DNA of 64,000 nt from a virus (Duplodnaviria; Heunggongvirae; Uroviricota; Caudoviricetes), in IMG/VR virus record IMGVR_UViG_3300049489_000540. One strand, 5' to 3'. Made by a program: the position numbers and the translations under genes. A model generated the notes under the pieces. The model did not search any database, was not told the origin of the DNA, and was given only the letters and a program-made list of their open reading frames with translations. Positions 5,832 through 49,472 of the stretch are shown piece by piece (positions within the stretch are counted from its first letter, which is position 1; the number at the start of each line of letters is the position of its first letter).

Positions 5832-6266
5832 CTAATTATTTTTCTTAATACTTTTCAAAATCTTCATAGTGTCTTCTATTTCTTTTTTATCTTCAAAAAC
5901 CCACTGATCGCCGTAGGACATCTGTGTTGTGTACTTCACAGGAGAATATGGAACGATTAACATTCCTGTTATACAAAAATACTTAAAGTCAAATCCATCT
6001 TTTTCAAATCTCTTTTTGAAATCTTTTCTAAAACTACTCCAGTGTCTTTTTAAATGCTTGCATGCTTCAAGGCTGTCACGAAATTGAAGGTCATCGGTCC
6101 ATGGCACACCAATAAGATGACCATTAACCCGCATGAATAGGGCAATAGAATAAGATTTCTGCCGACCCAACAGATCGCTGTAGTGTTCATTTAGTTTTTG
6201 TGATTCAGCAAGAAGAGCTTGTAGCTCTTCATTCTGCTTCTCGATATCCTCGACATACTTACTCAT
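5832..6266 (-). CDS. family-1 small protein (conserved N-terminal LE-x3-EELQE-x-LA motif)
   Basis: N-term MSKYVEDIEKQNEELQALLAESQ from the internal Met at 6266; the longer ORF start at 6302 precedes the motif. Confidence 0.65.
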   Translation of the reverse strand: MSKYVEDIEKQNEELQALLAESQKLNEHYSDLLGRQKSYSIALFMRVNGHLIGVPWTDDLQFRDSLEACKHLKRHWSSFRKDFKKRFEKDGFDFKYFCITGMLIVPYSPVKYTTQMSYGDQWVFEDKKEIEDTMKILKSIKKNN

Positions 6267-6456
6267 GCGACCGTTCCTCGTCGCACATGTCTTGGATATC
6301 ACCTATACATGATCCACACCGAGTTCCAGCGGGACAATGCTTTTGAACATCTTTATAGGTTACACACTTATGTTTTCGAATGACCTCTTGAATATCAATA
6401 TATGGAATATTCAAACAGACACATAAACGAGGCACTTCTAGTGGTATCATGACCAC
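6259..6456 (-). CDS. small Cys-rich (CxxC-type, Zn-binding-like) protein
   Basis: 65 aa; CPAGTRCGSCIGDIQDMC; tightly packed between family-1 genes. Confidence 0.4.
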   Translation of the reverse strand: MVMIPLEVPRLCVCLNIPYIDIQEVIRKHKCVTYKDVQKHCPAGTRCGSCIGDIQDMCDEERSHE

Positions 6457-6472
6457 TAGATTATATCATAAA

Positions 6473-6880
6473 TTATCTTTTATCTAATGAGTGTTCGAAA
6501 AATTCTGGCTCTTTTTCTAAGTAGCCCGCCTCTTTTATGGCATATACGACCGCATCACGAATATCACCTACATAGCGTCCAGTTTTCGTCCGTCTGTCTG
6601 TAAACGGTTTGCCTTCCTCATACTCAGCACCATACAATATCTGCCACGCTTTTCCCATGCGGTGGATAACACACAAACCGATAGATTTGGCGTTGTCGCC
6701 AGTATACATGCCCTTGGAATTATGATATTTCGCATACAAGTAGATAACGGCGAACTTAGGTTCATTTTTTAAATTATAAATCGCCGCCACCAGGCTGATC
6801 TGGTGTTCGTAGGCTAGGACTTTTTCTTGGAGAATCTCACAACGTTCTTCAAGTTCTTCAATATACTTCTTAGTGTCCAT
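6473..6880 (-). CDS. family-1 small protein
   Basis: N-term MDTKKYIEELEERCEILQEKVLAYEHQ; overlaps the upstream gene's 3' end by 67 nt. Confidence 0.6.
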   Translation of the reverse strand: MDTKKYIEELEERCEILQEKVLAYEHQISLVAAIYNLKNEPKFAVIYLYAKYHNSKGMYTGDNAKSIGLCVIHRMGKAWQILYGAEYEEGKPFTDRRTKTGRYVGDIRDAVVYAIKEAGYLEKEPEFFEHSLDKR

Positions 6881-7482
6881 GGTGACGATTCTACAGGCTT
6901 TTCTGATTTTGCAACGAATTTTTTCATGTTGTCTATTACTTCATCTGTGAAAATTTCATTGAATTTCTTAAGATTTACAAGGTTTTTACCAAGTTCATCA
7001 TATGACATCGAATCAGCTTGTGAATTGGAAGTAATACTGATATTCCCATATGTCGTAAAAGAACCACTTGAATCTGAATACGCTAACAATCCTTTAAGCA
7101 TATTGTGATCTGTTTTAGCTTTGACATCTTTGGACGTTGTATATCCAAGTGCTGCAAGACCAGTATACTCCATAGCGTACTGGATAACTTCATCGTAGCT
7201 ACATTCTTTTACAACTTCTGTAGTATCTTTTGTATCATTTTGAAAATATATATGCCACTTTTTATCTGGATTTTTAATGGTACATGCGGTATTCTTATAA
7301 CCTAATCTACGAGAAGCATCACTAAAAAAGCTCATACTTATGGTAATTTCATCTACTGTTGTCTCGTCCGATTCATATATGGTATACACATGAACATGAA
7401 CAAACTTTCCAATATTGGCATACGATGCTAATTTTTCTTCTAGTTCTTCACAGCGTTTTTCCAACTCATGTACATATGTCAT
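6814..7482 (-). CDS. family-1 protein (222 aa)
   Basis: N-term MTYVHELEKRCEELEEKLASYANIG. Confidence 0.65.
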   Translation of the reverse strand: MTYVHELEKRCEELEEKLASYANIGKFVHVHVYTIYESDETTVDEITISMSFFSDASRRLGYKNTACTIKNPDKKWHIYFQNDTKDTTEVVKECSYDEVIQYAMEYTGLAALGYTTSKDVKAKTDHNMLKGLLAYSDSSGSFTTYGNISITSNSQADSMSYDELGKNLVNLKKFNEIFTDEVIDNMKKFVAKSEKPVESSPWTLRSILKNLKNVVRFSKKKS

Positions 7483-7838
7483 CGTAGTATCTCCACCTTA
7501 TAGGTAATGCCCGTCATGTGCATTATATCTAATATTTTTTCAATATAATACTGCACGGGTTGATTGTCTTTTATATCTTTTTCCACCTGACCAAATGCAT
7601 CCGTTGAGAATACCCATTTCCTATTGCTTTTTGCCAATGAAGCCAAATACAAACTATCATCCAGAGCGGCTTCGTGTCCCATCATAAAGCTGATATCTTT
7701 TACTTTATTATTATGAACTTTACATACGAAACTAAATGTTACTTTTTTATAAACTTCTAATAAACGCTCTGTGCATGCAAGCTGCTCTTGAAGCTCTTCG
7801 ATGTTCTTTTCCAATGATGCCGTATACGAAATACTCAT
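7479..7838 (-). CDS. family-1 small protein
   Basis: N-term MSISYTASLEKNIEELQEQLACTERLL; ATGA overlap with upstream gene. Confidence 0.65.
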   Translation of the reverse strand: MSISYTASLEKNIEELQEQLACTERLLEVYKKVTFSFVCKVHNNKVKDISFMMGHEAALDDSLYLASLAKSNRKWVFSTDAFGQVEKDIKDNQPVQYYIEKILDIMHMTGITYKVEILR

Positions 7839-8170
7839 GCTTTAAAAGAATATCTAACCTTGATGCCACGCAAGTTATAGGATTCTAAAATCTTCTCTAC
7901 AACATCTTGGATAGTCAGCCTCCTATCATAATACTTATCTTTTTTACTGGTCATGGTCCACACCCAAACAGGCTTTTCATCAAGTGTCGTATCAATAATG
8001 GTAAATAGCGGCTCTATATGACTTTCAAACAACGACATAGTTAATTCACATCTATATACCTTGCCGCTTTTTGTGATAACAGCAGAAAACATGGAACGCA
8101 ACGAAGCCGCTTCCATAAGCTGCTCTTGTAATTCCTCGCAGCGTTTTTCAAGCTCCGTCACATAGCTCAT
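7835..8170 (-). CDS. family-1 small protein
   Basis: N-term MSYVTELEKRCEELQEQLMEAASLRS; ATGA overlap. Confidence 0.65.
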   Translation of the reverse strand: MSYVTELEKRCEELQEQLMEAASLRSMFSAVITKSGKVYRCELTMSLFESHIEPLFTIIDTTLDEKPVWVWTMTSKKDKYYDRRLTIQDVVEKILESYNLRGIKVRYSFKA

Positions 8171-8825: not shown

Positions 8826-8847
8826 GTAGCATCACCGCACGGTGTTT

Positions 8848-9786
8848 TTAGTGCTTACGGATGAAGTGCCCGTGAGCATCGCGGGGCTGCCGCAGATGGT
8901 TCTTGTCGGTCGGACGGTGACCATCGGCGCGGAGCCGCCGCGCACCCACCTTGTCAGCGACCGCACTATCACCAAGCACGAAGAGCGGCTGTTCCTCGGG
9001 CGTCTTTTGCGCTTCCGCCTGGTTATCGACACCAGCATTGTAGACGGGCTTGGTGATGGGCTTGCTCACATCCACCATGACTTCCAGAACATCGTACCCA
9101 CAAGTACGCATCTTGGTCATGTTGTAGTCGGGCGGGATCGCGCACACATTCTTCGGATGGACCTTGATGGCGATCAGCACACCACAGCCGCTCTGGTACT
9201 GGTCACGCGCATATTCCAGCGAAGCGACATGCAGACCACGCGAACAAGTGTTCTTCGGATTGCAGTCAACCTCGTTGCGAGGCATGGACGGACTTACACC
9301 CACGGAGTTGTCGATGGTGCCCGTATAGTGGTCGGTGAAGTTATCACGGACACGCTTGTAGGCGATGAAGCAGCCATCATCGGTGATCGGATGCTGGCGA
9401 CGATCAAGGAAGGTATACAGATCCTTCACAGCGACGGGATCGGGATTCATCTTGATGTTCGCCCACAGCGCGAGCAGCGGTCGGACATTCAGACCAAGAT
9501 CCGCCATTTCCAGCGCCCGCTTGGCGAAGAGGTCGGGAGTGCGCTCACCGTTGATGTAGACGCCGCCATTGCAGACATCGAACAGACCGCACGCATGCGC
9601 CTTGATACGCATGGACGGGTCGAGGAAGGTCAGAATTTCCTCAGTCGTGGCGGGATTGTCCTCGCGCAGCATTTCGATCAGCTTGGGGAAAGCCGCATCG
9701 GTTCGTGCCACCGTCTTGGTAACCGTACCGAAGTAGACGGCGATGGGACCATTGGAAGTCAAGATGAAGTAAGGCTTGATAGCCAT
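8848..9786 (-). CDS. rIIB: rIIB-like protein
   Basis: 312 aa (same length as T4 rIIB), immediately downstream of and co-oriented with the rIIA-like gene; ~50% GC island. Confidence 0.8.
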   Translation of the reverse strand: MAIKPYFILTSNGPIAVYFGTVTKTVARTDAAFPKLIEMLREDNPATTEEILTFLDPSMRIKAHACGLFDVCNGGVYINGERTPDLFAKRALEMADLGLNVRPLLALWANIKMNPDPVAVKDLYTFLDRRQHPITDDGCFIAYKRVRDNFTDHYTGTIDNSVGVSPSMPRNEVDCNPKNTCSRGLHVASLEYARDQYQSGCGVLIAIKVHPKNVCAIPPDYNMTKMRTCGYDVLEVMVDVSKPITKPVYNAGVDNQAEAQKTPEEQPLFVLGDSAVADKVGARRLRADGHRPTDKNHLRQPRDAHGHFIRKH

Positions 9787-9843
9787 GGGTTGCTCCTTGC
9801 GTATGGGTTTGATGTTAGCTTGGTTTCTCGGAATGTCAATCTT

Positions 9844-11991
9844 TTACTTAAGTCCGTTCGCAGCATCGACTAGCATGATGTAGTTGAGCAGGTCTTTCGT
9901 GGCGACCTTATCTAGCGTAAGGTACTTCATCATGGGATAGGTGCTGGTGACTTGATTGTGGAAGCGCACAACCTCATGTTGGGGGGTGGTCGTTTCATTG
10001 ATCACCTTCACCCTCTTGAGGTTTGCAATGGCTGCGGTGCAGCACGAACCATCCACATACAGCGTACCCAGCGCCAACTTATTCTGCTTGAATTTGATAA
10101 CAGCCTCCAGCCACAGCCGCATGGGCGAATCGGCATGAAGAGCATTTGGATCAATCTTGATGTATGTGTTGTCAACAGCAGTATCAACACCATTACTTCC
10201 TCTGGTCGCCTGATATGTTTCGATATCATTCATAACATCGTCATTATCAACGATTTCGTGCAGCGGCTTCCAGTTTTTTGGATTCAGAAACTTGACATTA
10301 CCAGGCGCGACACCGACAATCTGAATCTTGAATGCGCTCTGCACATCATGCATACTACGGTTATCCATGGTGCGACCATTTCCGAGAATCGCATTCGAAT
10401 GATCATTCTTTTTATCATACAAGAAGTAATAGCCGTGATCGTCATTATTATCGTAATCGAATTCACCACAGACTTCAAACTTCCGACGCCACGAATTCGA
10501 AGCCTTCCACTTATTGATCGTCTTGGTGGGTCTGACATACTGACCCTTCACCCGCTTTGCCTTGACATATCCGCATGTATCGATATCGAACATGGTCGGA
10601 ATGACTTCTTCCAAGTTATTATCACTCAGGAAGCTATCAACATTGTGTCTAGCACCCTTGAAGATAACCATCTGCTGGTTGCGCCAATTCAGACCCAGCT
10701 TGCTGAACGCAAACTTGATGCATGCGACATCGTAGGTCTTGGAAGTATAGAAAACGGGAATGTTAGCCTTCTTCATGTTGACGAACATTTCGATTTGTGC
10801 GGAATCATACTTCTTGCCACACATCTTGTTGTCATAGTCGATAGCGAAGGTCATGCATGACACGGGCATCTTTTTCTTGTCGTATGCATCACCAAAAGCA
10901 TTGCACTTGGGTGCCGAGACGCTGTATACGATCCTTACACCGTTCCATGTCACATCAGTATGGCTATCAAGCCAATTCGCATCACGCAGCAGCTTGACAT
11001 AATTCCATGCGTCAAGGTAGGTCTTTTGCGAATCGATGATGCGGAACAGATGTTCCTTGATGGTCGCAAGTGCCTCATTGAATCGATTGTTGATCTTGAT
11101 CTTCGCATCATCATCGATCTGGAGCGATTCGCGGTTCAGTGTCGGCAGCAATTCACCGATACCGAAGTGAAGGAAGATATTTCCAGCAAACGCCTTGTTG
11201 TTGATGACACTGGAATGGATGGGATACTTGATGCCGTTCACAACGGCATATAGCTCTGATTCGTAGCATCGGCTTGACATGACGAAATCAAACGCCTCAC
11301 AGCGGTGCATCCAATTGCGCTCAGGATACGTCAGTTCATTTTCAGCAGCACCCGTAATGGTCGGGCGAACCTTCCAGAATTCGGTCTTGGCAAGGACGGC
11401 ATTCCGTACTTCACCGAAATCCTCGGGCTTGACGGGAATGGTGATGGAAGTGCCAGTGTGCTGATCACCCTCGGGATCGGATGAATTCACGATATGCGGC
11501 TCACCGAGTTCAAGCAGCTTGATGGAGAAGTCATCCCGCTTCACCACAGCATAAAGGCGGCGAACCAGATTGTCATCTTCACGAACGACCGTCTTGACGG
11601 TAAACTGATCAGTGTAGGCGAGGGGGATTTTCGAACCGATGCCGAATGTACCATCGCTCTTATCATCCTCACGCTTCGTGGAATTACCAATCAGCACGAA
11701 CACCGTATGCATACGGTGCGGTGAGATACCAATGCCATGGTCGGAAATGATAAGGTTATTGTCGAGTGTGCTTGGCACTTGGATCTGAATAGGAACATCG
11801 GGATTACCAGACTCCACATTCGCATCGCGGGCATTGCTTGCGATTTCCTGCACCATCGTGATTTTCGGATACTGATAAACACTCTTCACAAGGTGATGGA
11901 TGATGATGCGCGGATCACCGACTCCCATATCGGTTTCAACCATTTCACCGCCGCCCACGAACAGGTCATTGATTTTGAGGGACATCTTCAT
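9844..11991 (-). CDS. rIIA: rIIA-like protein with N-terminal GHKL (histidine-kinase-like) ATPase domain
   Basis: 715 aa; GHKL motifs EIASNARDA (N-box), DHGIGIS (G1), GTFGIGSK (G2); IQVP...LD pattern as in T4 rIIA. Confidence 0.9.
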   Translation of the reverse strand: MKMSLKINDLFVGGGEMVETDMGVGDPRIIIHHLVKSVYQYPKITMVQEIASNARDANVESGNPDVPIQIQVPSTLDNNLIISDHGIGISPHRMHTVFVLIGNSTKREDDKSDGTFGIGSKIPLAYTDQFTVKTVVREDDNLVRRLYAVVKRDDFSIKLLELGEPHIVNSSDPEGDQHTGTSITIPVKPEDFGEVRNAVLAKTEFWKVRPTITGAAENELTYPERNWMHRCEAFDFVMSSRCYESELYAVVNGIKYPIHSSVINNKAFAGNIFLHFGIGELLPTLNRESLQIDDDAKIKINNRFNEALATIKEHLFRIIDSQKTYLDAWNYVKLLRDANWLDSHTDVTWNGVRIVYSVSAPKCNAFGDAYDKKKMPVSCMTFAIDYDNKMCGKKYDSAQIEMFVNMKKANIPVFYTSKTYDVACIKFAFSKLGLNWRNQQMVIFKGARHNVDSFLSDNNLEEVIPTMFDIDTCGYVKAKRVKGQYVRPTKTINKWKASNSWRRKFEVCGEFDYDNNDDHGYYFLYDKKNDHSNAILGNGRTMDNRSMHDVQSAFKIQIVGVAPGNVKFLNPKNWKPLHEIVDNDDVMNDIETYQATRGSNGVDTAVDNTYIKIDPNALHADSPMRLWLEAVIKFKQNKLALGTLYVDGSCCTAAIANLKRVKVINETTTPQHEVVRFHNQVTSTYPMMKYLTLDKVATKDLLNYIMLVDAANGLK

Positions 11992-12081: not shown

Positions 12082-12510
12082 TTAGATGCCACCCTTGACC
12101 ATATCAGCGCAAATCTCTAAAGCCATGTCGTATGTCAGCTTATACTTGGTTCTTTTCATCGTCCATGCCTCAAAAATGCCAGTCGGATATAGGAAGATTT
12201 TCCGTTGCATGACCAATTCGCTGATTTCCGACATATGTACTTCATTTAAGTTTTCGTCTTCATTGATTTTAAGATACTCGTAAATATCAGAACCCATTAA
12301 AACATTAAATTCGCCTGGATTGAATGCGAAGAATTCAATCAAATGATGTGTTAGAATCTCGGTATCAAGAAAACGTTTATGGGCGATGATCATGGTAGCC
12401 AAATAATCTGTATCTGGAACACCATCTCTATCAGACAGACTAAAATCTTTCCGCCGCCGCCTATGAACAGCTTCAATTTCTTTTTTCAACTTCTTGTGTA
12501 TCAGGTCCAT
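12082..12510 (-). CDS. hypothetical protein
   Basis: 142-aa ORF upstream of rIIA, same strand. Confidence 0.5.
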   Translation of the reverse strand: MDLIHKKLKKEIEAVHRRRRKDFSLSDRDGVPDTDYLATMIIAHKRFLDTEILTHHLIEFFAFNPGEFNVLMGSDIYEYLKINEDENLNEVHMSEISELVMQRKIFLYPTGIFEAWTMKRTKYKLTYDMALEICADMVKGGI

Positions 12511-12932
12511 AAGTATTTTCTCAGTGCTATGAGTCGAGTGAGTTTTTCGTTTTCTATATCATAAGTTTCATACATACCCTTTTTTTGAAACTCAGGATAT
12601 TCCTTTTTCCACCAATCATATAGTGCCATGATTTCTTTTAAATCATTATTTTCTTTTGTAAAACTAACCTCGTCACCAGGAATGGTCGCATCATTCATGT
12701 CACGGAACGGTGGGTTATTATGCCACTCCCCCTCTACAAATTCGACCAGTATGGCGAAACTCGCATGTAGTAATGCATAGTCACGATCACAGAAACCAGG
12801 CTCAAGTGTCGGCACTTTTATAGTATGGTGACTTTCAAACCCCATGATGATGTCTTGTAATTCCTCGCAACGAATTTCCAATTCTTTTATATACAAATCC
12901 TTATTCATGCGACTGACAAGCATATCAGCCAC
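12501..12932 (-). CDS. family-1 protein (motif slightly internal)
   Basis: ...DLYIKELEIRCEELQDIIMGFESHH near N-terminus. Confidence 0.55.
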   Translation of the reverse strand: MADMLVSRMNKDLYIKELEIRCEELQDIIMGFESHHTIKVPTLEPGFCDRDYALLHASFAILVEFVEGEWHNNPPFRDMNDATIPGDEVSFTKENNDLKEIMALYDWWKKEYPEFQKKGMYETYDIENEKLTRLIALRKYLWT

Positions 12933-12956: not shown

Positions 12957-13904
12957 TTAGAGCGTCTTTACATGTTGAAACATGGTGTCAATGGTATCAC
13001 TGACATCAAAACGCCGCATGTCTGTCGATGATTTGGCGTATTTCTTTTCAATGGCATCGACATACATGGTGAATTGTCCATCGTCACCCATATAAAAAGA
13101 GTCCCATTCGTCTTGTAAAAGCATACGACGGACTTTGAGTTGCTGAATTGCCAAGTTATCGAACGACACGACTTTAAATTCGCGCCGAATCCACGGCAGC
13201 ATATCGTACATGTCTTTCATGCGCTGATCTACTTCGGCATTGTGATAGGAAGCACCACGCCGAATATCCTTATAGCCCAATATAAGGATCTTGCGTCCAT
13301 ACAGTGGTTCAAGATCCTTTGGATCGACTACGCCGTTGATAACATGGAAAACCACATTATCTGATTCAATGACATTGATCACATCCTTTTTACCAAAGTA
13401 TGAAATACCAAGTCCTCGAATCAGATTCTCACGCATCAGCTTGTTGATGATGGATGGTTTCAAGGAATTTTGATGCATGGTCAAGTTGCACAACACACCT
13501 TGATCCTTCATATCATTCAGAAATTGAAAGATATGGGGATGGAGCATCGGATTTCCACCACCAATAGCTAGCTCTGTGCCTGGTCGTAGAGTCTTGAAGA
13601 ACGGTAGATGTAAATCTCCGTGTTTTCCAGTTGGAACGGAGCCTTCATGACAGAAATGACATGCCTGCTCACACGCATTGGTGATTTTCACATCAATGTT
13701 TTCTGGAAACGCTACATTGAAGTTGCTATCATTTGTCTGACGGATCTTCGTACCATCAGCATAAATCGTAATAACACTGTTTCCGTTTTCGTAGGTACGA
13801 ATGACGGGACTAGTGGTTATCGTTGTCGATAACGATGGTGTACTTCCGATTGAAGATAAGCTCTCCGATGTCATTCTTGAAATCTTCATCGGTTTTTCCT
13901 TCAC
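12957..13904 (-). CDS. radical SAM domain protein
   Basis: CxxxCxxC cluster (NACEQACHFCHEG) and Gly-rich SAM motif AIGGGNP; 315 aa. Confidence 0.7.
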   Translation of the reverse strand: MKEKPMKISRMTSESLSSIGSTPSLSTTITTSPVIRTYENGNSVITIYADGTKIRQTNDSNFNVAFPENIDVKITNACEQACHFCHEGSVPTGKHGDLHLPFFKTLRPGTELAIGGGNPMLHPHIFQFLNDMKDQGVLCNLTMHQNSLKPSIINKLMRENLIRGLGISYFGKKDVINVIESDNVVFHVINGVVDPKDLEPLYGRKILILGYKDIRRGASYHNAEVDQRMKDMYDMLPWIRREFKVVSFDNLAIQQLKVRRMLLQDEWDSFYMGDDGQFTMYVDAIEKKYAKSSTDMRRFDVSDTIDTMFQHVKTL

Positions 13905-14373
13905 TCAAATAGTCGCTTAATGTGTCATGAGATTGGTGGTCAATGTAACCATATGGATGGTAGCCTTGAAGCTTTTGTAAATTGACGCTCAATCCAGTGA
14001 AGTCAGCAACGACTTCCTTTACGAGCCGATACTGGCGATTATTTTCAACATCGCTTATTTCTGGAGTATCATTCATATGACTGATGATACTAGTCACAAC
14101 ATAAGAAAGCTTGGAATCCCACGATTCACATGTGTCTGGACCCCAGCCAAATTCACCACATGTAAGGGTAAATTCTCTGTCTTTTCCCTTGGTCTTGAAC
14201 GAAACATATCCGTCTTGCTCGACACTCATGGAAATGGAATGTACGGAGCTAGAATTTGTTTCAAAAACATTCTTTCTTATAACGGTCTTCATATATGCGT
14301 CCTTTGTAGATAGGATAATAGCACAAGTTTCGGGAAAGTAAACTACTTTTCGCTTAGACGCTTTTCGACCCAT
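13810..14373 (-). CDS. hypothetical protein
   Basis: 187-aa ORF; 3' end overlaps the radical-SAM ORF start region so one of the two boundaries is uncertain. Confidence 0.45.
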   Translation of the reverse strand: MGRKASKRKVVYFPETCAIILSTKDAYMKTVIRKNVFETNSSSVHSISMSVEQDGYVSFKTKGKDREFTLTCGEFGWGPDTCESWDSKLSYVVTSIISHMNDTPEISDVENNRQYRLVKEVVADFTGLSVNLQKLQGYHPYGYIDHQSHDTLSDYLSEGKTDEDFKNDIGELIFNRKYTIVIDNDNH

Positions 14374-14615
14374 GCCATAGCGTCTTTTTTGCTTTTAAAA
14401 TCACTAACTGTCTTACCATCATCAATTTGCATTGTTAAGACGGCTCTCCAGGTTGATGCCTTTATTTTATTAACAAAGGCTACTTTGATTTTATAGATAC
14501 CAAAGTACCACAAGCCATCACCTTCATGCCACTGTAAGTACCAGCGTTCCGTGGTGGCTAGCCGCTCTTGCAATTCCTCGTTATGTTTTTCCAATTCTTC
14601 GCTATATTTTCCCAT
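14343..14615 (-). CDS. family-1 small protein
   Basis: N-term MGKYSEELEKHNEELQERLATTERWYLQW. Confidence 0.65.
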   Translation of the reverse strand: MGKYSEELEKHNEELQERLATTERWYLQWHEGDGLWYFGIYKIKVAFVNKIKASTWRAVLTMQIDDGKTVSDFKSKKDAMAWVEKRLSEK

Positions 14616-32629: not shown

Positions 32630-32740
32630 CGTGATAGCTTATCTATATATAAAAATTAGCAAGAAGATTATAAAGACATACAACACAAGTCATTAAGCAA
32701 GACATTGACAATATAGAATGATAATGTAATATGCGTCCGC

Positions 32741-39667: not shown

Positions 39668-40062
39668 CCTTTGAATAACACGATTTCTTTAAATGTTTCT
39701 TGCATGTACACGGTCCCATCTTCATCTTTTGCCACGCGAGTAAACCCTTGAACACGGATACACGCATGTGCAATCATGAATCCTTGTTGTATGTTTTCTG
39801 CATGCGTCACAAACATATACCATGGGAGATAGTTTGGCAATTCTGGCATATCAACTGTAAATTTACGCTTAATAAGATCATGGGCTACGGATCTTGTTAT
39901 CTCTTCACGCAATCCTGTTATTCCATGTTCTTTGGTGTAATTAATATGAAGTTCGTAGTAATACCGTGGTCTATGCCACAGCCAATCATTGGTTGCTTGC
40001 TCTTTAGCAAGCAACTCTTGTAGCTGCTCAATATGCTCTTCAAGTTGCTTCGAGTAGCTCAT
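39655..40062 (-). CDS. family-1 protein
   Basis: N-term MSYSKQLEEHIEQLQELLAKEQATNDWLW. Confidence 0.65.
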   Translation of the reverse strand: MSYSKQLEEHIEQLQELLAKEQATNDWLWHRPRYYYELHINYTKEHGITGLREEITRSVAHDLIKRKFTVDMPELPNYLPWYMFVTHAENIQQGFMIAHACIRVQGFTRVAKDEDGTVYMQETFKEIVLFKGCVL

Positions 40063-40424
40063 CGGTGTAGCTCATACATAATTTTTATATTTGTTGTTTT
40101 TGCACTCATTCCGTCAAACTCGTCATGGTTATGGTAAGGAAGAGCAACCAATGTGAGCATGAATGTTCTTATATGCTTTTTTGGAAACATAGCCATGAGA
40201 AGGAAATCTATTCCATTCTCTTTAATACTTTTCAGCATGCGAGTCATATGACTTCGAACGATGAATCGCCGTTGAGATTCTTCATCCGTTTCATGAAGCA
40301 TAACATAGTAAAAGTGTAATCTTTGCCTTTCTTTCCAGGCAATGAATGCCCGAGCCTCACTAAGCAACTCTATAAGCTGCTCGTTCTGCTTTTCCAGAGA
40401 TTCAGTGTAGGCTTTAGAGTTCAC
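40059..40424 (-). CDS. family-1 protein
   Basis: N-term MNSKAYTESLEKQNEQLIELLSEARAFIAWKE; ATGA overlap. Confidence 0.65.
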   Translation of the reverse strand: MNSKAYTESLEKQNEQLIELLSEARAFIAWKERQRLHFYYVMLHETDEESQRRFIVRSHMTRMLKSIKENGIDFLLMAMFPKKHIRTFMLTLVALPYHNHDEFDGMSAKTTNIKIMYELHR

Positions 40425-40709: not shown

Positions 40710-41072
40710 TTATATGTATTTTTCTTTGTACTCTTTATGAACCATATCCATAGCCTTGAAAATTTTCTCCATATGTTGTTTCACTTCGTCAAATGTTCTG
40801 AAATCACTAAATTTAAACTCCCATTTATCATCCGAAAATACTTTATATAAGTCTTCCGAGTAAGAAATACAAAATTTACTACTGGCATGTTGTCGAGTCA
40901 CAGAACAGAGAATTATTGTGGACATATATAATTTTGCTTCAAATACATTGTGTCGTGGTTTTGGATTTATGAACCACTCTGGTGTCCACCTTTCGGCTAC
41001 TGCCAGGCGCTCCGTCAAATCCTCATTCCGCCTTTCTAATTCGGCTACATACTGTTGCATGGGGGTCGGCAT
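40710..41072 (-). CDS. family-1 protein
   Basis: N-term MPTPMQQYVAELERRNEDLTERLAVAERWTPEW. Confidence 0.6.
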   Translation of the reverse strand: MPTPMQQYVAELERRNEDLTERLAVAERWTPEWFINPKPRHNVFEAKLYMSTIILCSVTRQHASSKFCISYSEDLYKVFSDDKWEFKFSDFRTFDEVKQHMEKIFKAMDMVHKEYKEKYI

Positions 41073-41460: not shown

Positions 41461-41742
41461 ATGAACATTGTTAAATACAATGCTTGTAGAGACATTTGCC
41501 TTTATCATGTCATGGATAGTGTTAAGAATGATGTTGGCATGCTTATGCATAACGAAATAGAACACAACATTACGAAGTTCGTTACCAGCCTCGTTTTCGA
41601 TAATATTGAAACTCACGTTGAGTCTTCCGTAGACGATAATGTATGGGAACCTGTATGGGATAGTATGTTCAGTAATGTTGTATGTAAAATATTTACGGAT
41701 TCACAGCTTGAAGCGGCATTTGCAGCACTGGAGCGGATATGA
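41461..41742 (+). CDS. family-2 mini-protein (array 2, gene 1)
   Basis: SD aaagga; V-x-x-x-V-x-x-N octad/tetrad repeats; ends DSQLEAAFAALERI; ATGA overlap. Confidence 0.65.
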   Translation: MNIVKYNACRDICLYHVMDSVKNDVGMLMHNEIEHNITKFVTSLVFDNIETHVESSVDDNVWEPVWDSMFSNVVCKIFTDSQLEAAFAALERI

Positions 41743-42005
41743 AATCCATTATTAACGATGTTTGCGATACTCTGGATAAGTTAGATAATGTTGAAGGTAT
41801 CAGAATATATATTCAGGAGCATGCTTCGGTGCGTGCATATAATCCAGTCTGGGACATTGTTCAGTTAACTGTCTGGGATAATGTCTGGGAGAATGTGTTA
41901 AACCATCTTGATGCTGAAATTACAAGCACATTTTGTCATATGAAATATAAAAGATTCACCAAATCACAGCTTCAAGCCGCTTACCAGGCACTGGAGCAGC
42001 TATGA
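41739..42005 (+). CDS. family-2 mini-protein
   Basis: ends KSQLQAAYQALEQL; ATGA overlap. Confidence 0.65.
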   Translation: MKSIINDVCDTLDKLDNVEGIRIYIQEHASVRAYNPVWDIVQLTVWDNVWENVLNHLDAEITSTFCHMKYKRFTKSQLQAAYQALEQL

Positions 42006-42253
42006 AGGATAATGTGAGGGTCCGTATATGGGTTGATGTTCGTAGCAACATCATAGATAATGTTTGGAGTATTCTCAAACGGATCATTAGGGAACATACT
42101 GGTGTTAACGTCAGAAATAGTGTATGGGATAATATTCCAGAGCGCACTACGGATGACATGGAGGGTCTTACGAAGCCACATATCATGCATCATCTATGTA
42201 AGTCAACGGACCAACAGCTTGAAGCTGCTTACTTAGCACTGGAGCGGATATGA
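42002..42253 (+). CDS. family-2 mini-protein
   Basis: ends DQQLEAAYLALERI; ATGA overlap. Confidence 0.65.
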   Translation: MKDNVRVRIWVDVRSNIIDNVWSILKRIIREHTGVNVRNSVWDNIPERTTDDMEGLTKPHIMHHLCKSTDQQLEAAYLALERI

Positions 42254-42513
42254 ACCAGAGCCATCATAGAGATATTGTGATACGCCATGAAATAAAGGAT
42301 TATGTTGGTAGTATTGTCAGAAGTAAAGTTATAAGTCGTTGTGTAGACAAAGTAAAAGCTAATACCTTGGGTAATGTGTATGCTGATGCTACATCACATA
42401 TTCGTGATAATGTTAGGAGTTTTATTGATACAAATACTATAGCTAATGTTGGAAAAAGATCATGTACAGATTCACAGCTTGAAGCAGCTTACCAGTCACT
42501 GGAGCAGATATGA
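42250..42513 (+). CDS. family-2 mini-protein
   Basis: ends DSQLEAAYQSLEQI; ATGA overlap. Confidence 0.65.
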   Translation: MNQSHHRDIVIRHEIKDYVGSIVRSKVISRCVDKVKANTLGNVYADATSHIRDNVRSFIDTNTIANVGKRSCTDSQLEAAYQSLEQI

Positions 42514-42767
42514 TCGAGGATTATATAAAAGATTCTGTCTTGGAAACTATTCGGTCAACAACCAGTAACCGTTTAGATTCTATTATCATGGATAAGGCTT
42601 ATGACATTATGGATATTGTCAGAGAGAATGTTTGGGATCATCTTGATGGCAGTATATGGTCTAATGTCGATATGAATGTTAGGAATCAAATATGTCATGT
42701 TGCCCGTTATCAGTTGTTCACTCATTCACAGCTTGAAGCAGCTTATACCGTATTGGAGCAGATATGA
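42510..42767 (+). CDS. family-2 mini-protein
   Basis: ends HSQLEAAYTVLEQI; ATGA overlap. Confidence 0.65.
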   Translation: MIEDYIKDSVLETIRSTTSNRLDSIIMDKAYDIMDIVRENVWDHLDGSIWSNVDMNVRNQICHVARYQLFTHSQLEAAYTVLEQI

Positions 42768-43015
42768 GTAATGCAAAAAATGAAGAAATTTTATGGTGTA
42801 AACTCTGGAATAAGATCAAACAACGAAGCTGGAGTGTTGTCGCAAATAGTAATAGGGTTCACAATGTTCATGCTCATATCTGGACCAATGTTGATAATAG
42901 GATTGATTCGTGGCTCATGAGACATATACGGTCGGAAGTTAAGGAGACTATTCGTGATCGTAGATATGCTGAATTGCAACTTGAGGCAGCTTACCAGGCA
43001 CTGGAGCAGATATGA
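42764..43015 (+). CDS. family-2 mini-protein
   Basis: ends ELQLEAAYQALEQI; ATGA overlap. Confidence 0.65.
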   Translation: MSNAKNEEILWCKLWNKIKQRSWSVVANSNRVHNVHAHIWTNVDNRIDSWLMRHIRSEVKETIRDRRYAELQLEAAYQALEQI

Positions 43016-43263
43016 AACGTATATATATCCAAGTCAACGAAAAGGTTTGGGATGCGGTTAAGAAAGCAACAGATAGGCATATAAAACAGACATTTAAATA
43101 TGGTGTAGATCCCGTCAGCAGGCATGTTGATGATGTTGTCTACGATAATGTTTGGAATAATGTCTTGATGCATATTCGTATACGAGTAAACCATTCCAAC
43201 ATACGCAGATTATATACTGATTCGCAGCTTGAAGCCGCTTATGAGTCGCTGGAGGGATTATGA
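43012..43263 (+). CDS. family-2 mini-protein
   Basis: ends DSQLEAAYESLEGL; ATGA overlap. Confidence 0.65.
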   Translation: MKRIYIQVNEKVWDAVKKATDRHIKQTFKYGVDPVSRHVDDVVYDNVWNNVLMHIRIRVNHSNIRRLYTDSQLEAAYESLEGL

Positions 43264-43505
43264 ACCGATGTGAAAATACAGCCATCAATGATGTTTGGGA
43301 TAATATCTTATACAAAGCGCGGGAAGCCGTTAGATTCAGCATCGATAATGAATTATTTGAATTTGTTGAACTTCATATCGATATGAGAGTCCACAGTAGT
43401 GTGTGGAGTAACATCGGTGCCCCGACTTTTAACATGAATTTTAAACATATAATATGCACAGATTCGCAGCTTGAAGCCGCTTACCAGGCACTGGAGCAGT
43501 TATGA
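43260..43505 (+). CDS. family-2 mini-protein
   Basis: ends DSQLEAAYQALEQL; ATGA overlap. Confidence 0.65.
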   Translation: MNRCENTAINDVWDNILYKAREAVRFSIDNELFEFVELHIDMRVHSSVWSNIGAPTFNMNFKHIICTDSQLEAAYQALEQL

Positions 43506-43789
43506 TACTGGATGATATTTTCGCGGCTACTACGAATACTTCTGAGGGTACAATTAGACATGGTGTTGCGTCCATTGCCAAGACGAGAATCAAAGATAAT
43601 GTCGATGAGAATGATTATTGGAGCGTGTGGAACAGTGTGTTGGTTAGTAGTAGGAGTAATGTTATGGATAATGTCAATGAACATATCGCTAATAATACTT
43701 TGCGCAAATTCAAATACTTTTTCAGAGATGCGTCAATTACTGATTCGCAGCTTGAGGCTGCATATGCTGCTTTAAAAACTACAACTTGA
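43502..43789 (+). CDS. family-2 mini-protein (last of array; modified C-terminus)
   Basis: ends DSQLEAAYAALKTTT; stop overlaps the duplicated promoter. Confidence 0.6.
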   Translation: MILDDIFAATTNTSEGTIRHGVASIAKTRIKDNVDENDYWSVWNSVLVSSRSNVMDNVNEHIANNTLRKFKYFFRDASITDSQLEAAYAALKTTT

Positions 43790-44419: not shown

Positions 44420-44674
44420 CTACGGTGACTCTTCCATAACTCTGTAAGCTGCTTGAAGTTGTGATTCTGTAAATGATGCGTATTCGAAATGAGCAATAGT
44501 AATAGCTCTAATGTTCCATCCAACATTATTCCAAACATTAATTCCAGTATTATCATCTATATGATCTCCGACTAAAATCCAATCATCCTCACCGACATGA
44601 GTTCTGACAGCACCGTAGCTTTTAACTCTGATACTTATCCCAACATCAGGATCTACATTATGTAGGATTTTCAT
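44420..44674 (-). CDS. family-2 mini-protein (minus array, last gene)
   Basis: ends ESQLQAAYRVMEESP. Confidence 0.6.
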   Translation of the reverse strand: MKILHNVDPDVGISIRVKSYGAVRTHVGEDDWILVGDHIDDNTGINVWNNVGWNIRAITIAHFEYASFTESQLQAAYRVMEESP

Positions 44675-44922
44675 ATCCGCTCAGTCGCTTCATAAGATGC
44701 TCGAAGCTGTGAATCAGTGAACGATGTATATCCGACAGTATCATGAACATTATTCCAGACATTGCGTTTGATATTAATCCATATATTATCATGAATATTA
44801 GCTCTGATATAAGCTCCGACATAAGTTAATGCAATAGTTTCAGCACCACGCCCGATAATACCATGTGCATTGCTCCATATATCAGCCTTGACAGTTTCCA
44901 AGACACTATTTTTAACTCTCAT
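44671..44922 (-). CDS. family-2 mini-protein
   Basis: ends DSQLRASYEATERI; ATGA overlap. Confidence 0.65.
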   Translation of the reverse strand: MRVKNSVLETVKADIWSNAHGIIGRGAETIALTYVGAYIRANIHDNIWINIKRNVWNNVHDTVGYTSFTDSQLRASYEATERI

Positions 44923-45158
44923 ATCCGCTCCAATGCTTCAAATGCCGCTTCAAGTTGTGATTCGACATTCTTTTTACTAATGAATGTAGACGAAACCACA
45001 TGTCCGATATTGCGTCTGACATGATCTATGACATTAGCACTGACATTATTAAATATATTATTCGTGACAATGTGCATGATGTCAGCACCAACATGATTCT
45101 CGGCATTATCAAAGCCATTTTGTAAGATCCGGTTTTTGACAAGATTCCTGACATTCAT
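44919..45158 (-). CDS. family-2 mini-protein
   Basis: ends VESQLEAAFEALERI; ATGA overlap. Confidence 0.65.
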   Translation of the reverse strand: MNVRNLVKNRILQNGFDNAENHVGADIMHIVTNNIFNNVSANVIDHVRRNIGHVVSSTFISKKNVESQLEAAFEALERI

Positions 45159-45394
45159 ATCTGCTCCAATGCTGCATAAGCACCTTCAAGCTGCGAATTG
45201 GTACATGAATTTCTTTTAAACCTAGTCTTGACCGTATCTCTAACATTCATATAGAAATTGGTTCTGACATTGGCTCTGACATGAAACCAGACCTTACCTT
45301 GAAGATTATTTCTGACATTATTCTTGATATAAGACCATGTACTGTCTCTGACATCACTTCTAATATCTTTTGTAATACCTAGCATAATACTCAT
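45155..45394 (-). CDS. family-2 mini-protein
   Basis: ends TNSQLEGAYAALEQI; ATGA overlap. Confidence 0.65.
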   Translation of the reverse strand: MSIMLGITKDIRSDVRDSTWSYIKNNVRNNLQGKVWFHVRANVRTNFYMNVRDTVKTRFKRNSCTNSQLEGAYAALEQI

Positions 45395-45672
45395 ATTTTC
45401 TCCATTGCTGCATACGCTGCTTCAAGCTGCGAATACATGTGTGGTAGTCCGCGTCCGTAGTTGAATCTATTTCTGACATCCTCCCAAACACGATCACCCA
45501 CATTAGCCCATACATTGACTCTGACAGTATTTCTAACATTCATAAAAATAAGAGCAATATTACCATTATTATTTTTATCTATACAAATATCAGCTTTATA
45601 TCGGGCAAGCTTTAAGACAGTATAATCGACACTACCCCAAATATTATCCCAGACATATTCATCTGTACTCAT
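45391..45672 (-). CDS. family-2 mini-protein
   Basis: ends MYSQLEAAYAAMEKI; ATGA overlap. Confidence 0.65.
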   Translation of the reverse strand: MSTDEYVWDNIWGSVDYTVLKLARYKADICIDKNNNGNIALIFMNVRNTVRVNVWANVGDRVWEDVRNRFNYGRGLPHMYSQLEAAYAAMEKI

Positions 45673-45914
45673 ATCCGCTCCAATGCTGCATAAGCGGCTT
45701 CAAGTTGCGAATCATCATGTAGTGATTTGAATGCGAAATTATCTACAGTATCATAATAAACATGACTACCGACATTAGCCCATACGGTATCTCTGACAGT
45801 ATTTCTGATATTAATATAAACATCATTAACATATTCACACTTATCAGCTTTAGATCGAGCAACACCAAAGACATTATCTCTGACATCTTTCCAGCAATTA
45901 TGTCCAAACATCAT
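45669..45914 (-). CDS. family-2 mini-protein
   Basis: ends DDSQLEAAYAALERI; ATGA overlap. Confidence 0.65.
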   Translation of the reverse strand: MMFGHNCWKDVRDNVFGVARSKADKCEYVNDVYINIRNTVRDTVWANVGSHVYYDTVDNFAFKSLHDDSQLEAAYAALERI

Positions 45915-46162
45915 AGCTGCTCCAGTGCTTCGTAAGCTGCTTCAAGCTGCTGGTTTGTATATACTTTACGAATAGTATAACTTTTAACATACATTCTGGC
46001 ATTACTCCTGACATTATCGGAGACATTGGTACTGACAAATGCTAAAATATAATCCACAGCATCGGCTCTGACGCCAATCTCAACATTACTCGCAGAATTT
46101 ATCCTGGCTTGAGCCTTAATACTATCCCAGACATAAGCCAAAACAGATTTATCTACTCTCAT
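45911..46162 (-). CDS. family-2 mini-protein
   Basis: ends NQQLEAAYEALEQL; ATGA overlap. Confidence 0.65.
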   Translation of the reverse strand: MRVDKSVLAYVWDSIKAQARINSASNVEIGVRADAVDYILAFVSTNVSDNVRSNARMYVKSYTIRKVYTNQQLEAAYEALEQL

Positions 46163-46476
46163 ATTTGCTCCAGTGACTTGTAAGCGGCTTCAATCTGCGA
46201 ATCACATTCACATTCAATTTTATATTCAAGATTGGTGTCAACATGTTTAGCCACATGAGCATAAATGTGAGCCTCAACACCAAGCCAAACATTTCTTTCA
46301 ACACGCTCCCAAATATTACTCTCAACAAGGTTGAAGATAGATAGCTTGGTTTGTTTAAAAACAACAGCCTTAGCGGTATGTCCAATGTCAGACCAGACAT
46401 TGACCCGAACATCGTTACGGACAACATGCATGTTGCTACACCTATCGTTGCATTTAAGCTTACGAGTATTCTTCAA
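46159..46476 (-). CDS. family-2 mini-protein (true start may be the internal Met at 46431)
   Basis: ends CDSQIEAAYKSLEQI; NVWxxV repeats. Confidence 0.6.
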   Translation of the reverse strand: MKNTRKLKCNDRCSNMHVVRNDVRVNVWSDIGHTAKAVVFKQTKLSIFNLVESNIWERVERNVWLGVEAHIYAHVAKHVDTNLEYKIECECDSQIEAAYKSLEQI

Positions 46477-47749: not shown

Positions 47750-47770
47750 GTGGGTATTTCTTGCTTATTA

Positions 47771-48010
47771 CTACTGAATGACTGATAGAATCTCGTTCCA
47801 CTGATTATCGGGAATTCGTAGTTGCTTTCCAGCGTGTCGTTCAATTTCTTTAACCAGTGATCGCAACAAGGACACATCGCTGTAACCTGGACCAATATCA
47901 GGATTTGCGTCATCATCGCTTTTCTTATATTTGAGAGCGACTTTGAGCATTGCTAATTCCGTAGGAGTTAGTGCATCATCGTCTTCAACTTCTCCTGCCG
48001 ACATAATCAT
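47771..48010 (-). CDS. small acidic protein
   Basis: 79-aa ORF. Confidence 0.4.
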   Translation of the reverse strand: MIMSAGEVEDDDALTPTELAMLKVALKYKKSDDDANPDIGPGYSDVSLLRSLVKEIERHAGKQLRIPDNQWNEILSVIQ

Positions 48011-48116
48011 GCTCCTTGAGCCACCACTCTACAGACCCCATGCTATTTTTCAAGTGCGTATTTTCGCTTGCTTTTTTAAAGACTTCTCTAACATATAGGG
48101 CTGAAGGGGCACTATC

Positions 48117-48356
48117 ATGGCTACCAATAAGCATGAGCGGAATTACCTGAGATTTGTCGAAGCTCAACAGAACGAGGTCATCAATGAACGGAACCGATTC
48201 CAGACCCAGCTAACGCTGTCGATTTACGATCTGGAAACCATCATCTGCCTTCTGCCGCCCGGCAGACTCAGTGCCAAACTCCAAGGTGCGCTCAAGCATG
48301 CTGAACAACAGTTCAAAATACGAGATGTCGATTTCGGTGATTTGAAAGAGGACTGA
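48117..48356 (+). CDS. hypothetical small protein
   Basis: 79 aa; stop overlaps the next gene's ATG at 48356. Confidence 0.45.
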   Translation: MATNKHERNYLRFVEAQQNEVINERNRFQTQLTLSIYDLETIICLLPPGRLSAKLQGALKHAEQQFKIRDVDFGDLKED

Positions 48357-48640
48357 TGAAGTCCTATACGCAGCAGCTTGAGGAACATATTGAGCAGCTA
48401 CAACAGTCGCTTGCCAAGACGCAAGCACATTCGTTACAGTGGTATAAGGTTTCACCACGACTATACGAATTCCGTGTAGGTGCATATGCCATTGGTAAAG
48501 TCGAAAAATACAATGATCATTGGGTAGCTATGATCATTGCAAAAGGATTCAATAACGGATCGGGTGGATTCTGCGTACATCAGACGCCGGAAGCCGCCAA
48601 GATGGATGTAGAGGAAACCATATTCAGTACCATACCATGA
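48356..48640 (+). CDS. family-1 protein
   Basis: N-term MKSYTQQLEEHIEQLQQSLAKTQAHSLQWYKV. Confidence 0.65.
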   Translation: MKSYTQQLEEHIEQLQQSLAKTQAHSLQWYKVSPRLYEFRVGAYAIGKVEKYNDHWVAMIIAKGFNNGSGGFCVHQTPEAAKMDVEETIFSTIP

Positions 48641-49149
48641 GCGAATACACCACAAAACTAGAGAACCATATCGAGCAACTGGAAGAGCAGCTTGCCGATG
48701 CTGAACGGAAACTTGCCAAGTTTCCATCCATCAATAAACGAGATATCAATCCCGAGTATATGACCAGCCCCATGTATCCATTCTTGCAAAAGCTGCATGC
48801 GCTGCCAGGAATCATGGTTGATTGGGTACATCCACATGCACCTATTATTGAAAGTTTTGCAATTAAAATAGGTTTTACAGCAATACCATGTTATGACAAT
48901 ATTGGTCTATGGATCTTTCTGCGTGCCATAAACCAGAGATATTGGAATTATGCTGATGATTGGATGTTAGAATCAGCCATAGATGATGTCAGTATCCGCA
49001 CGCGGTTCGTGTTCCTTTCGAAAAAACCATATAAAGAAGCCAAATCCGAATTAGATAATCTTGGACGGCAAATAGATTTCATAGTCAATCATCCGAATTT
49101 ATCTCAAGATTTTGGCATCACCAAAGAACGATTACATGAACCCGTATGA
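48637..49149 (+). CDS. family-1 protein
   Basis: N-term MSEYTTKLENHIEQLEEQLADAERKLAKF; ATGA overlap. Confidence 0.65.
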   Translation: MSEYTTKLENHIEQLEEQLADAERKLAKFPSINKRDINPEYMTSPMYPFLQKLHALPGIMVDWVHPHAPIIESFAIKIGFTAIPCYDNIGLWIFLRAINQRYWNYADDWMLESAIDDVSIRTRFVFLSKKPYKEAKSELDNLGRQIDFIVNHPNLSQDFGITKERLHEPV

Positions 49150-49472
49150 GCAGCTACACACAACAACTAGAAGAACACATCGAGCAGCTACAAGAGAAAC
49201 TTACCCGTGCTGAAACATTACTGCATGCATCTGTTGTCTTAACATGGTATCGACTGCCTAAAAATGAAAACCGATGGGATTTGATGATCATAGGAATTCC
49301 AAATACGCATATTGCGACAATATTACGATTTCAAGATTATTATCAATTATCATGGGCAGGAACAAACCCAATATATATTCCATCGAATTATCCGTCGCTT
49401 AAACAAGCACAAGACGAAGCACGGGAAATTCTCAAGGTACGCGCCGAGTCATACATTAAAATCGCATTGTGA
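49146..49472 (+). CDS. family-1 protein
   Basis: N-term MSSYTQQLEEHIEQLQEKLTRAETLLHAS; ATGA overlap. Confidence 0.65.
   Translation: MSSYTQQLEEHIEQLQEKLTRAETLLHASVVLTWYRLPKNENRWDLMIIGIPNTHIATILRFQDYYQLSWAGTNPIYIPSNYPSLKQAQDEAREILKVRAESYIKIAL

Follow-up and report, generated by a model that had tools for sequence, protein, structure and literature searches.

Results

Thirty-five small genes with a common N-terminus

The DNA analysed here (hereafter the window) is a 64,000-nucleotide stretch of a Caudoviricetes phage, IMG/VR record IMGVR_UViG_3300049489_000540, and its most conspicuous content is a set of small genes, here called family-1, whose products begin with the same short motif and continue with variable bodies. 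A regular expression for this motif, as reported in a first-pass annotation, served as a seed and matched 22 open reading frames (ORFs) in the window. Iterated hidden Markov model (HMM) searches of every stop-to-stop segment in the six frames settled at exactly 35 ORFs, all with an E-value of 1e-11 to 1e-18, and a second HMM, made from 131 database sequences, again gave these 35 and no others in the window. The start codon of each ORF was chosen as the one nearest to the motif. The two outermost members, 5832-6266 on the minus strand and 49146-49472 on the plus strand, agree with the span of 5832-49472 given in the annotation, and the 35 genes together occupy 13.7 kb, about a fifth of the window. 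They are listed below with strand, length, leading residues and the basis of assignment, where "regex+HMM" denotes genes that were in the 22-ORF seed too and "HMM" those found by the profile search only; the flavours are the helix variants described in the next section.

5832-6266 (-), 144 aa, MSKYVEDIEKQNEELQ..., Q-N flavour; HMM
6473-6880 (-), 135 aa, MDTKKYIEELEERCEILQ..., R-C flavour; HMM
6814-7482 (-), 222 aa, MTYVHELEKRCEELE..., longest member; regex+HMM
7479-7838 (-), 119 aa, MSISYTASLEKNIEELQ...; regex+HMM
7835-8170 (-), 111 aa, MSYVTELEKRCEELQ...; regex+HMM
12501-12908 (-), 135 aa, MNKDLYIKELEIRCEELQD..., orthologue upstream of rIIA in two other phages (L135, L029); HMM
14343-14615 (-), 90 aa, MGKYSEELEKHNEELQ..., member used for the structure model; regex+HMM
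17776-18267 (+), 163 aa, MATVPTYVHELEQRVDELE...; HMM
18264-18614 (+), 116 aa, MTYTHDLEKHVEELQ...; regex+HMM
18864-19154 (-), 96 aa, MKYNESLEQHVEELQ..., "AWTFHCN" subfamily with orthologues P0048 and P0024; regex+HMM
19151-19534 (-), 127 aa, MKRKYTHELEKQNEELM...; HMM
22725-23153 (+), 142 aa, MASYAQGLEEQIEVLQ...; HMM
23808-24179 (+), 123 aa, MTVYTEELEKTVNELQD...; HMM
24182-24709 (+), 175 aa, MPTYIEELEKQNEELQ...; regex+HMM
24706-25260 (+), 184 aa, MNYTRQLEQHVEELQ...; regex+HMM
29291-29635 (-), 114 aa, MNKYIEQLEKQNAELQ...; regex+HMM
29628-29942 (-), 104 aa, TTG start, SKYTEQLEKRCEELQ...; regex+HMM
30740-31051 (-), 103 aa, MSEYVEQLEKRCEQLE...; HMM
31048-31494 (-), 148 aa, TTG start, ANYCEQLEKQNAELQ...; regex+HMM
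31487-31813 (-), 108 aa, MSIYVDELEKRCDELQ...; regex+HMM
31822-32298 (-), 158 aa, GTG start, KYIEQLEQHVEQLE...; regex+HMM
32276-32629 (-), 117 aa, MPSYVNALEQHIHDLE...; HMM
32741-33172 (+), 143 aa, TTG start, HSYTTNLEQHVEQLQ..., sigma70-like promoter at 32705-32732; regex+HMM
33156-33551 (+), 131 aa, MPYTHDLEKHIDELQ...; regex+HMM
33548-33967 (-), 139 aa, MSKDAYIQQLESHIEELQ..., extended -10 sigma70-like promoter 34002-33975 abutting the start codon; regex+HMM
38336-38626 (-), 96 aa, MSEYTDSLEKQNTELQD...; HMM
38623-38958 (-), 111 aa, MVYTESLEQHVLELE...; HMM
38998-39354 (-), 118 aa, MQHKSYTRQLELHIEELQ...; regex+HMM
39344-39667 (-), 107 aa, MCFVSYVLDLEQHIEELQ...; regex+HMM
39655-40062 (-), 135 aa, MSYSKQLEEHIEQLQ...; regex+HMM
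40059-40424 (-), 121 aa, GTG start, NSKAYTESLEKQNEQL...; HMM
40710-41060 (-), 116 aa, MQQYVAELERRNEDL...; HMM
48356-48640 (+), 94 aa, MKSYTQQLEEHIEQLQ...; regex+HMM
48637-49149 (+), 170 aa, MSEYTTKLENHIEQLE...; regex+HMM
49146-49472 (+), 108 aa, MSSYTQQLEEHIEQLQ..., last member; regex+HMM

The pattern common to the 35 ORFs is M-x(1-5)-Y-[TVI]-x-x-L-E-x-x-[NIVC]-E-E-L-Q-E-x-L-A or, as a finer consensus, M-x(1-5)-Y-[TVI]-x-x-L-E-[KQE]-[HRQ]-[INVC]-E-[EQ]-L-[QE]-E-x-L-A. The Tyr stands at residue 3-7 in every member (position 4 in 17, position 3 in nine), and it is invariant or almost so across the family together with the Leu and Glu four and five residues on and the Leu at +11. Only two of the 35 proteins contain a hydrophobic stretch long enough for a membrane segment. 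Scans of all 35 against Pfam, PHROGs and NCBIfam returned isolated, spurious coiled-coil matches and no family model. We describe family-1 as a family of small, soluble accessory proteins of phages, specific to this lineage and hugely expanded in it, that share an N-terminal helix of about 24 residues.

The conservation lies in the protein. Each of the three conserved Leu positions is encoded by four to six different Leu codons, pairwise identity is 63% at codon positions 1 and 2 vs 40% at position 3, and the 40 nt that precede the start codons show a pairwise identity of 28%, which is about random. Because of these three observations we conclude that selection on the motif acts on the protein, not on the DNA; a DNA-level repeat, promoter or recombination handle was rejected on the same codon analysis.

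The helix has the pattern of a short leucine zipper

Counted from the invariant Tyr, hydrophobic or small residues fall at positions 2, 5, 9, 12, 16, 19 and 23, a canonical a/d heptad pattern of 3.5 repeats in which the a positions are T/I/V2, N/I/V/C9, L16 and I/L/V23 and the d positions L5, L12 and A19. Leu is near-invariant at d5, d12 and a16, and the hydrophobicity periodicity peaks at 100-105 degrees. From its sequence, the family-1 N-terminus would be an acidic, amphipathic, leucine-zipper-like coiled-coil segment of about 24 residues. The core position a9 is Asn in 85 of 131 sequences and in nine of the 35 window members, the others having Ile/Val or Cys, and a single core Asn is the classic determinant of register and partner in parallel leucine zippers of the GCN4/bZIP type. 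Position a9 covaries with g8, giving three flavours, Q-N, H-I/V and R-C (seven, 15 and seven window members, respectively); Q-N is dominant outside the window (76/131), and neighbouring family-1 genes often have the same flavour. These flavours could be pairing-specificity classes or simply sub-lineages.

The faces that a dimer would leave exposed are conserved as well. Positions E10, E11 and A17 (b and c of the heptad) each carry about 3 bits, equal to the core, and Y1 and E6 are invariant. Since the exposed faces are as conserved as the core, and since the helix always stands at the very N-terminus, the pattern suggests one common partner for the helix rather than 35 private dimers.

Among known systems, the helix resembles the bZIP/GCN4 zippers and the designed SYNZIP pairs, with which it shares a/d heptads, Leu at d, one Asn in a core a position, a length of three to four heptads and charged e and g positions. 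The best PDB sequence matches of the helix profile were also zippers (SYNZIP5, HY5, CREB), at non-significant E-values of 0.02-0.2. Unlike bZIP zippers, the family-1 helix stands at the very N-terminus ahead of a variable domain and is conserved on its exposed faces too, and its pairing is a prediction. A faint, non-significant match (E ~0.8-0.9) was obtained with gp5.9 of T7, an acidic coiled-coil inhibitor of RecBCD, which is likewise a small acidic coiled-coil phage accessory protein; gp5.9, in contrast, comes from one gene and is a coiled coil throughout, with neither a variable domain nor a family expansion.

The bodies are diverse, and about half may share a fold

With the helix removed, the bodies fell into 34 BLAST clusters among the 35 window members and 96 among 138 family proteins. 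The "highly diverse C-domains" described in the annotation are therefore found at the level of BLAST, but about 17 of the 35 members share a whole-length pattern. These align end to end, from the N-terminal helix through W-x-P-x-W and five strands to a C-terminal helix "(S/T)xxEAxxxVEK", and in them W-x-P-x-W follows the helix directly, without a linker to the first strand. An AlphaFold model of the 90-aa member 14343-14615, built with this alignment of about 17 members, has a pLDDT of 84 (about 80 in the N-helix) and places a predicted helix at residues 2-25, then five strands and a predicted helix at 76-89. About half of the family-1 members are thus predicted to share one small alpha/beta fold. 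The best PDB matches to the model align only about 55 of its 90 residues, and a Foldseek search against viral models gave no match at E<0.01. No body without the helix was found in the window.

Related arrays in other uncultured phages

In an exhaustive HMMER search, a 40-residue N-terminal profile matched 142 of 1.84 billion representative proteins at E<1e-3, about 130 of which are proteins of 40-223 aa that match at residues 1-46. Twenty of these are identical to window proteins, and the others, about 100 further members, all small and with the motif within residues 1-40, lie on other metagenomic contigs. The window itself derives from a JGI contig of 91,024 bp, and Logan contigs of the same phage end inside the window. 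The wider family came to light through this profile search, a word-indexed homologue search having returned only one and three matches.

The related phages are clearly distinct from the one in the window, their rIIA being 39-44% identical to its rIIA. A Logan contig of another phage carries 18 family-1 members in 20.6 kb, flanking rIIA-rIIB; a third phage (a JGI contig) has 12 in a 6-kb stretch, a fourth (a second JGI contig, 13.6 kb) also has 12, and three further contigs have seven, six and five. Where the flanks could be read, the arrays adjoin rIIA-rIIB (L135, L029) or a DUF2828 gene (L037, L097). Three phages have in common a syntenic block made up of the family-1 member 12501-12908, a 142-aa protein, rIIA, rIIB and a 196-aa protein. 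Single family-1 members have orthologues at 27-65% identity in other phages, which argues that each member is maintained. Family-1 has grown to dozens of copies in a clade of uncultured phages, and it lies by rIIA-rIIB in all three for which the rII region was examined.

Among GenBank phages, a megablast search with two stretches of the window and a tblastn search with one member and the consensus helix gave no match, and the best rIIA match among known phages is about 29% identical; no cultured relative of the phage was found by these searches. IMG/VR searched with a 751-aa window protein and a degenerate motif pattern yielded only chance coiled coils, and a motif scan of GTDB genomes gave no true member among the 120 bacterial and archaeal loci listed. 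A RecA-like neighbour in a related contig was considered as a taxonomic anchor and rejected, being RadA-like rather than UvsX-like.

The rII string and the promoters

The presence of both rII genes, claimed in the annotation, was confirmed by PHROG profiles:

8848-9786 (-), rIIB, 312 aa, phrog_609 (E 1e-51) and PF26926
9844-11991 (-), rIIA, 715 aa, phrog_612 (E 2e-60) and HATPase_c_3

Both lie in one tightly packed minus-strand gene string with seven family-1 genes, and a TTGACT/TAGAAT site at 16137 heads this long string. Opposite the GC-rich rIIB runs a 343-aa shadow ORF (8842-9873, plus strand), which naive longest-ORF calling picks over rIIB; it appears "conserved" in related loci because rIIB is conserved there.

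A sigma70-type, extended -10 promoter class, TTGACW-N13-14-TGnTAGnAT, occurs ten times in the window vs 1.3 expected from shuffles. Examples are:

28644-28671 (+), extended -10 site
54051-54077 (+), extended -10 site
55545-55572 (+), extended -10 site
56145-56171 (+), extended -10 site
59946-59972 (+), extended -10 site
34002-33975 (-), extended -10 site
51697-51670 (-), extended -10 site

The site at 34002-33975 ends 8 nt before the ATG of the family-1 gene 33548-33967 and, because of this short distance, would give a nearly leaderless mRNA. Other promoters head strings that contain family-1 genes.

A second signal, the T4 late-promoter-like octamer TATAAATA, is present in six copies in the window:

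2-9 (+), octamer
2116-2123 (+), octamer
5827-5820 (-), octamer
21274-21267 (-), octamer
23765-23758 (-), octamer
53222-53215 (-), octamer

It stands 5-25 nt upstream of the start codons of five genes (27-2111, 2139-4394, 4399-5814, 20634-21260 and 23142-23750) and before none of the 35 family-1 genes, and it may be the sign of a class of late genes. In T4, however, the ip genes likewise have promoters of sigma70-like type and lack the octamer within 80 nt, and we therefore dropped gene timing as an argument against packaging of the family-1 proteins.

Comparison with the T4 capsid-targeting sequence

The annotation had proposed, by analogy with the internal proteins (IPs) of T4, that the motif is a capsid-targeting or co-injection signal. 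The T4 capsid-targeting sequence (CTS) reads MKTYQEFIAE|A in IPII and IPIII and MKTFKEFTSTTTPVSTITE|A in IPI. Its targeting function rests mainly on residues 4 and 7, residue 4 being Tyr, and its processing on residues 8 and 10, where Asp at 10 blocks processing (PMC9026906). Against three family HMMs, T4 IPI, IPII and IPIII scored -0.2 to -2.1 bits and none aligned at its N-terminus, so that no homology between the family-1 motif and the T4 CTS was detected, as the annotation had cautioned. Only Tyr-4 and a hydrophobic residue four positions on (position 8) are common to the two.

The annotation also counted two or three L-x-E tripeptides in the shared N-terminus. L-Q-E is indeed present in 27 of the 35 members and L-E-E in five, but "LAxxE" contains no L-x-E, and the first 35 residues lack any [LI]xE in four of the 35 (23/131, or 18%, overall). 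The best register, L12-x-E14, is present in 27 of the 35 window members and falls to 59/131 (45%) family-wide, and L16-x-E18 is found in 35/131. The would-be P1 residue is Asp in several members and Gln in others. The tripeptide is mildly enriched over composition-matched shuffles (31/35 members vs 24 +/- 2.6). An (S/A/G)-x-E site of the phiKZ/SPN3US type is not conserved, with no register above 16/131.

The median pI of the family-1 helix is 4.5 and that of the bodies 8.9 (22 of 35 above 8), compared with 4.9-6.0 for the leaders and 9.0-9.7 for the mature parts of the T4 IPs. The other small ORFs of the window are nearly as basic (median 8.2, 50% above 8), and we dropped basic bodies as an argument for packaging. 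No head genes are present in the 64-kb window.

Other features of the window

A second expanded family comprises 21 tandem genes of about 83 aa each, whose bodies consist of short "xNVWxNV"-type repeats and whose extreme C-terminal tail, T-D-S-Q-L-E-A-A-Y-x-A-L-E-Q-I, is nearly invariant. It mirrors family-1 in having a conserved terminus and a variable body. Its arrays and the gene just upstream of the first are:

35626-36540, DUF6745 protein
36548-37313 (+), second-family array
41461-43789 (+), second-family array
44420-46476 (-), second-family array
51099-51401 (-), second-family array

Three large ORFs, 27-2111 (+), 2139-4394 (+) and 4399-5814 (-), of 694, 751 and 471 aa, are mutually similar, have the octamer TATAAATA ahead of each and gave no Pfam or PHROG match. 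The product of 20142-20588 (minus strand, 148 aa), in a gene string with two family-1 genes, starts with a hydrophobic segment, continues with a helical stretch rich in Gln and Leu and looks like a membrane-anchored coiled coil. The 434-aa protein of 51702-53006 (minus strand) has five DUF4379 treble-clef zinc-finger repeats, CapR homology domains and a weak DUF559 (Vsr-like endonuclease) C-terminus, and is conserved in a related Logan contig (L001). Further genes with assignments are:

12957-13904 (-), radical-SAM/Fe-S oxidoreductase, phrog_16999
27040-27999 (-), SPFH/Band-7 protein
61339-62709 (+), DUF2828 protein, phrog_850 (PHROG label "RNA-binding protein"), adjoining family-1 arrays in other phages too

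The GC content of the window is strongly heterogeneous, averaging 38% in the genes of the two expanded families, 48% in rIIA, 57% in rIIB, 50% in the SPFH gene, 57% in the DUF2828 gene and 53-55% over the 54-64 kb stretch. That the window is a chimera was considered and rejected, as orthologues of the genes at 59-63 kb adjoin family-1 arrays in two other contigs (L037, L097).

Discussion

Our preferred reading, which we hold tentatively, is that family-1 is an early-made, diversified accessory arsenal with a common coiled-coil docking or dimerisation helix. The helix would act in the infected cell as a common module by which a member pairs with its own copies, with other members or with a single partner shared by all, while the fast-evolving, mostly basic bodies would supply different target specificities. 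The proteins would probably be made from early in infection, as a host-takeover or counter-defence arsenal; early expression is probable because the genes are packed into rIIA/rIIB strings, at least some of which start at sigma70-type promoters. Several observations weigh against this proposal. The promoter evidence is at consensus level only and covers few gene strings. Fold and sequence searches, including those of Pfam, PHROG, NCBIfam, PDB and viral models, suggest no activity for any body. The helix starts at residue 2-7 in about 130 independent sequences, a placement that a plain zipper does not need, and this fixed start, together with the invariant Tyr and Glu, resembles a recognition signal more than a plain zipper.

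A first alternative is capsid targeting, as raised in the annotation. Under that hypothesis the helix would dock on the scaffold core of the prohead and be removed by the prohead protease, and the bodies would be packaged with the DNA as co-injected effectors. It is a special case of a common partner, the partner being the prohead core, and we regard it as a minority hypothesis and rather unlikely. The likeness to T4 IPI, IPII and IPIII is one of architecture: a conserved acidic leader at the extreme N-terminus (in 35/35 members and about 100 relatives from databases), an invariant Tyr close to residue 4, where the T4 CTS has one of its targeting determinants (PMC9026906), small and mostly basic bodies that are mutually unrelated and extremely diverse, a plastic region, and sigma70-like promoters, which are no objection to packaging as the T4 ip genes have them too. 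In both systems the payloads are thought to be arms-race proteins (for T4, CTS work of Mullaney & Black 1996, reviewed in PMC9026906 and PMC3012670). Conservation on all faces of the helix implies one receptor, for which the helical scaffold core would be one candidate, and the modest enrichment of [LI]xE also counts in favour of capsid targeting. Precedent comes from giant phages: the SPN3US virion contains a paralogue family B of up to 20 members, and N-terminal regions of SPN3US/phiKZ proteins are implicated in head targeting (PMC5694885). These, too, are large and lineage-variable phage paralogue families, so that dozens of paralogues per particle have a parallel and paralogue number is no objection to packaging; the head paralogues differ in being larger, cut at A/S/G-x-E and defined by virion proteomics. 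However, homology to the T4 CTS is undetectable, the scores being negative, and the T4 system has three genes and a leader of 10-19 residues with a strict I/L-x-E end, against 35 genes and a 24-residue helix of 3.5 heptads here. The family conserves neither a register of [LI]xE nor the [SAG]xE of phiKZ/SPN3US, and in some members the would-be P1 is Gln or Asp, the latter a block to processing in T4. Roughly half of the members have no linker between the helix and the conserved W-x-P-x-W with the first strand. The basicity of the bodies is undistinctive within the window, and the octamer TATAAATA precedes five other genes and none of the 35, a weak point as the T4 ip genes lack it too. Packaging and processing have been demonstrated for T4 and would be a prediction for family-1. 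The T4 analogy fits in architecture only, and the T4-specific form of capsid targeting, with L-x-E processing, is weakened.

In a second alternative, a single ancestral fold of N-helix, beta-sheet and C-helix would have undergone rapid birth and death, the helix would be its slowest-evolving structural element with neither shared partner nor signal, and the "diverse C-domains" would mostly be one domain diverged past BLAST recognition. The full-length alignment of about 17 of the 35 members, with the shared W-x-P-x-W and "(S/T)xxEAxxxVEK" helix, is consistent with it, as are the model confidence (pLDDT 84, N-helix about 80), the same flavour often found in adjacent genes, as expected from tandem duplication, and the want of any helix-less body in the window. 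We nevertheless consider it improbable, because a helix packed in a monomer would be conserved on one face, whereas here exposed positions equal the core; moreover, members of 140-222 aa are too long for a fold of 90-120 aa, the best PDB matches cover only about 55 of the 90 model residues, and the contrast between a helix of 3-4 bits across 131 sequences and bodies in 96 BLAST clusters is extreme. Still less credence, indeed almost none, can be given to the idea that the conserved 5' segment is a nucleic-acid element, be it a recombination handle by which cassettes are shuffled, a promoter/stem-loop of the T4 PeSL kind or an operator acting on translation. The conserved stretch starts every gene, and the arrays are tandem and plastic, as a shuffling handle would yield; but the third codon positions, the mixed Leu codons and the random-like upstream sequences speak against it, and the profile finds members at the protein level in phages whose rIIA is only 39-44% identical. 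A bolder reading, which we think doubtful, is that the portable N-terminal helix is an address tag that brings dozens of unrelated small proteins to a single hub in a deep-branching, uncultured lineage.

What is new here is a family for which Pfam, PHROG and NCBIfam have no model and the GenBank phages gave no relative. Its kind is already known: small proteins that vary next to a conserved peptide at one end and are encoded in a plastic region, as in the T4 CTS and the giant-phage head paralogues. As related phages also devote a large share of their sequence to family-1, the family must matter to the lineage. With its 24 residues, the helix is short enough to be used in searches and as a tag in experiments. 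If family-1 carried only a dimerisation zipper, it would still be a clear case of birth-and-death evolution in a phage plastic region. If the helix is a packaging or docking signal, it would represent a second, independently evolved route to load diverse cargo, useful for the engineering of phage-delivered proteins, and the at least 96 distinct bodies would form a catalogue of candidate anti-host and anti-defence proteins. Should the helix be an address tag with the prohead core as its hub, family-1 would form the largest arsenal of virion-packaged, co-injected effectors known so far, with a signal unrelated in sequence to the T4 CTS; should the hub be a host or phage machine, family-1 would be an F-box-like adaptor family in a phage.

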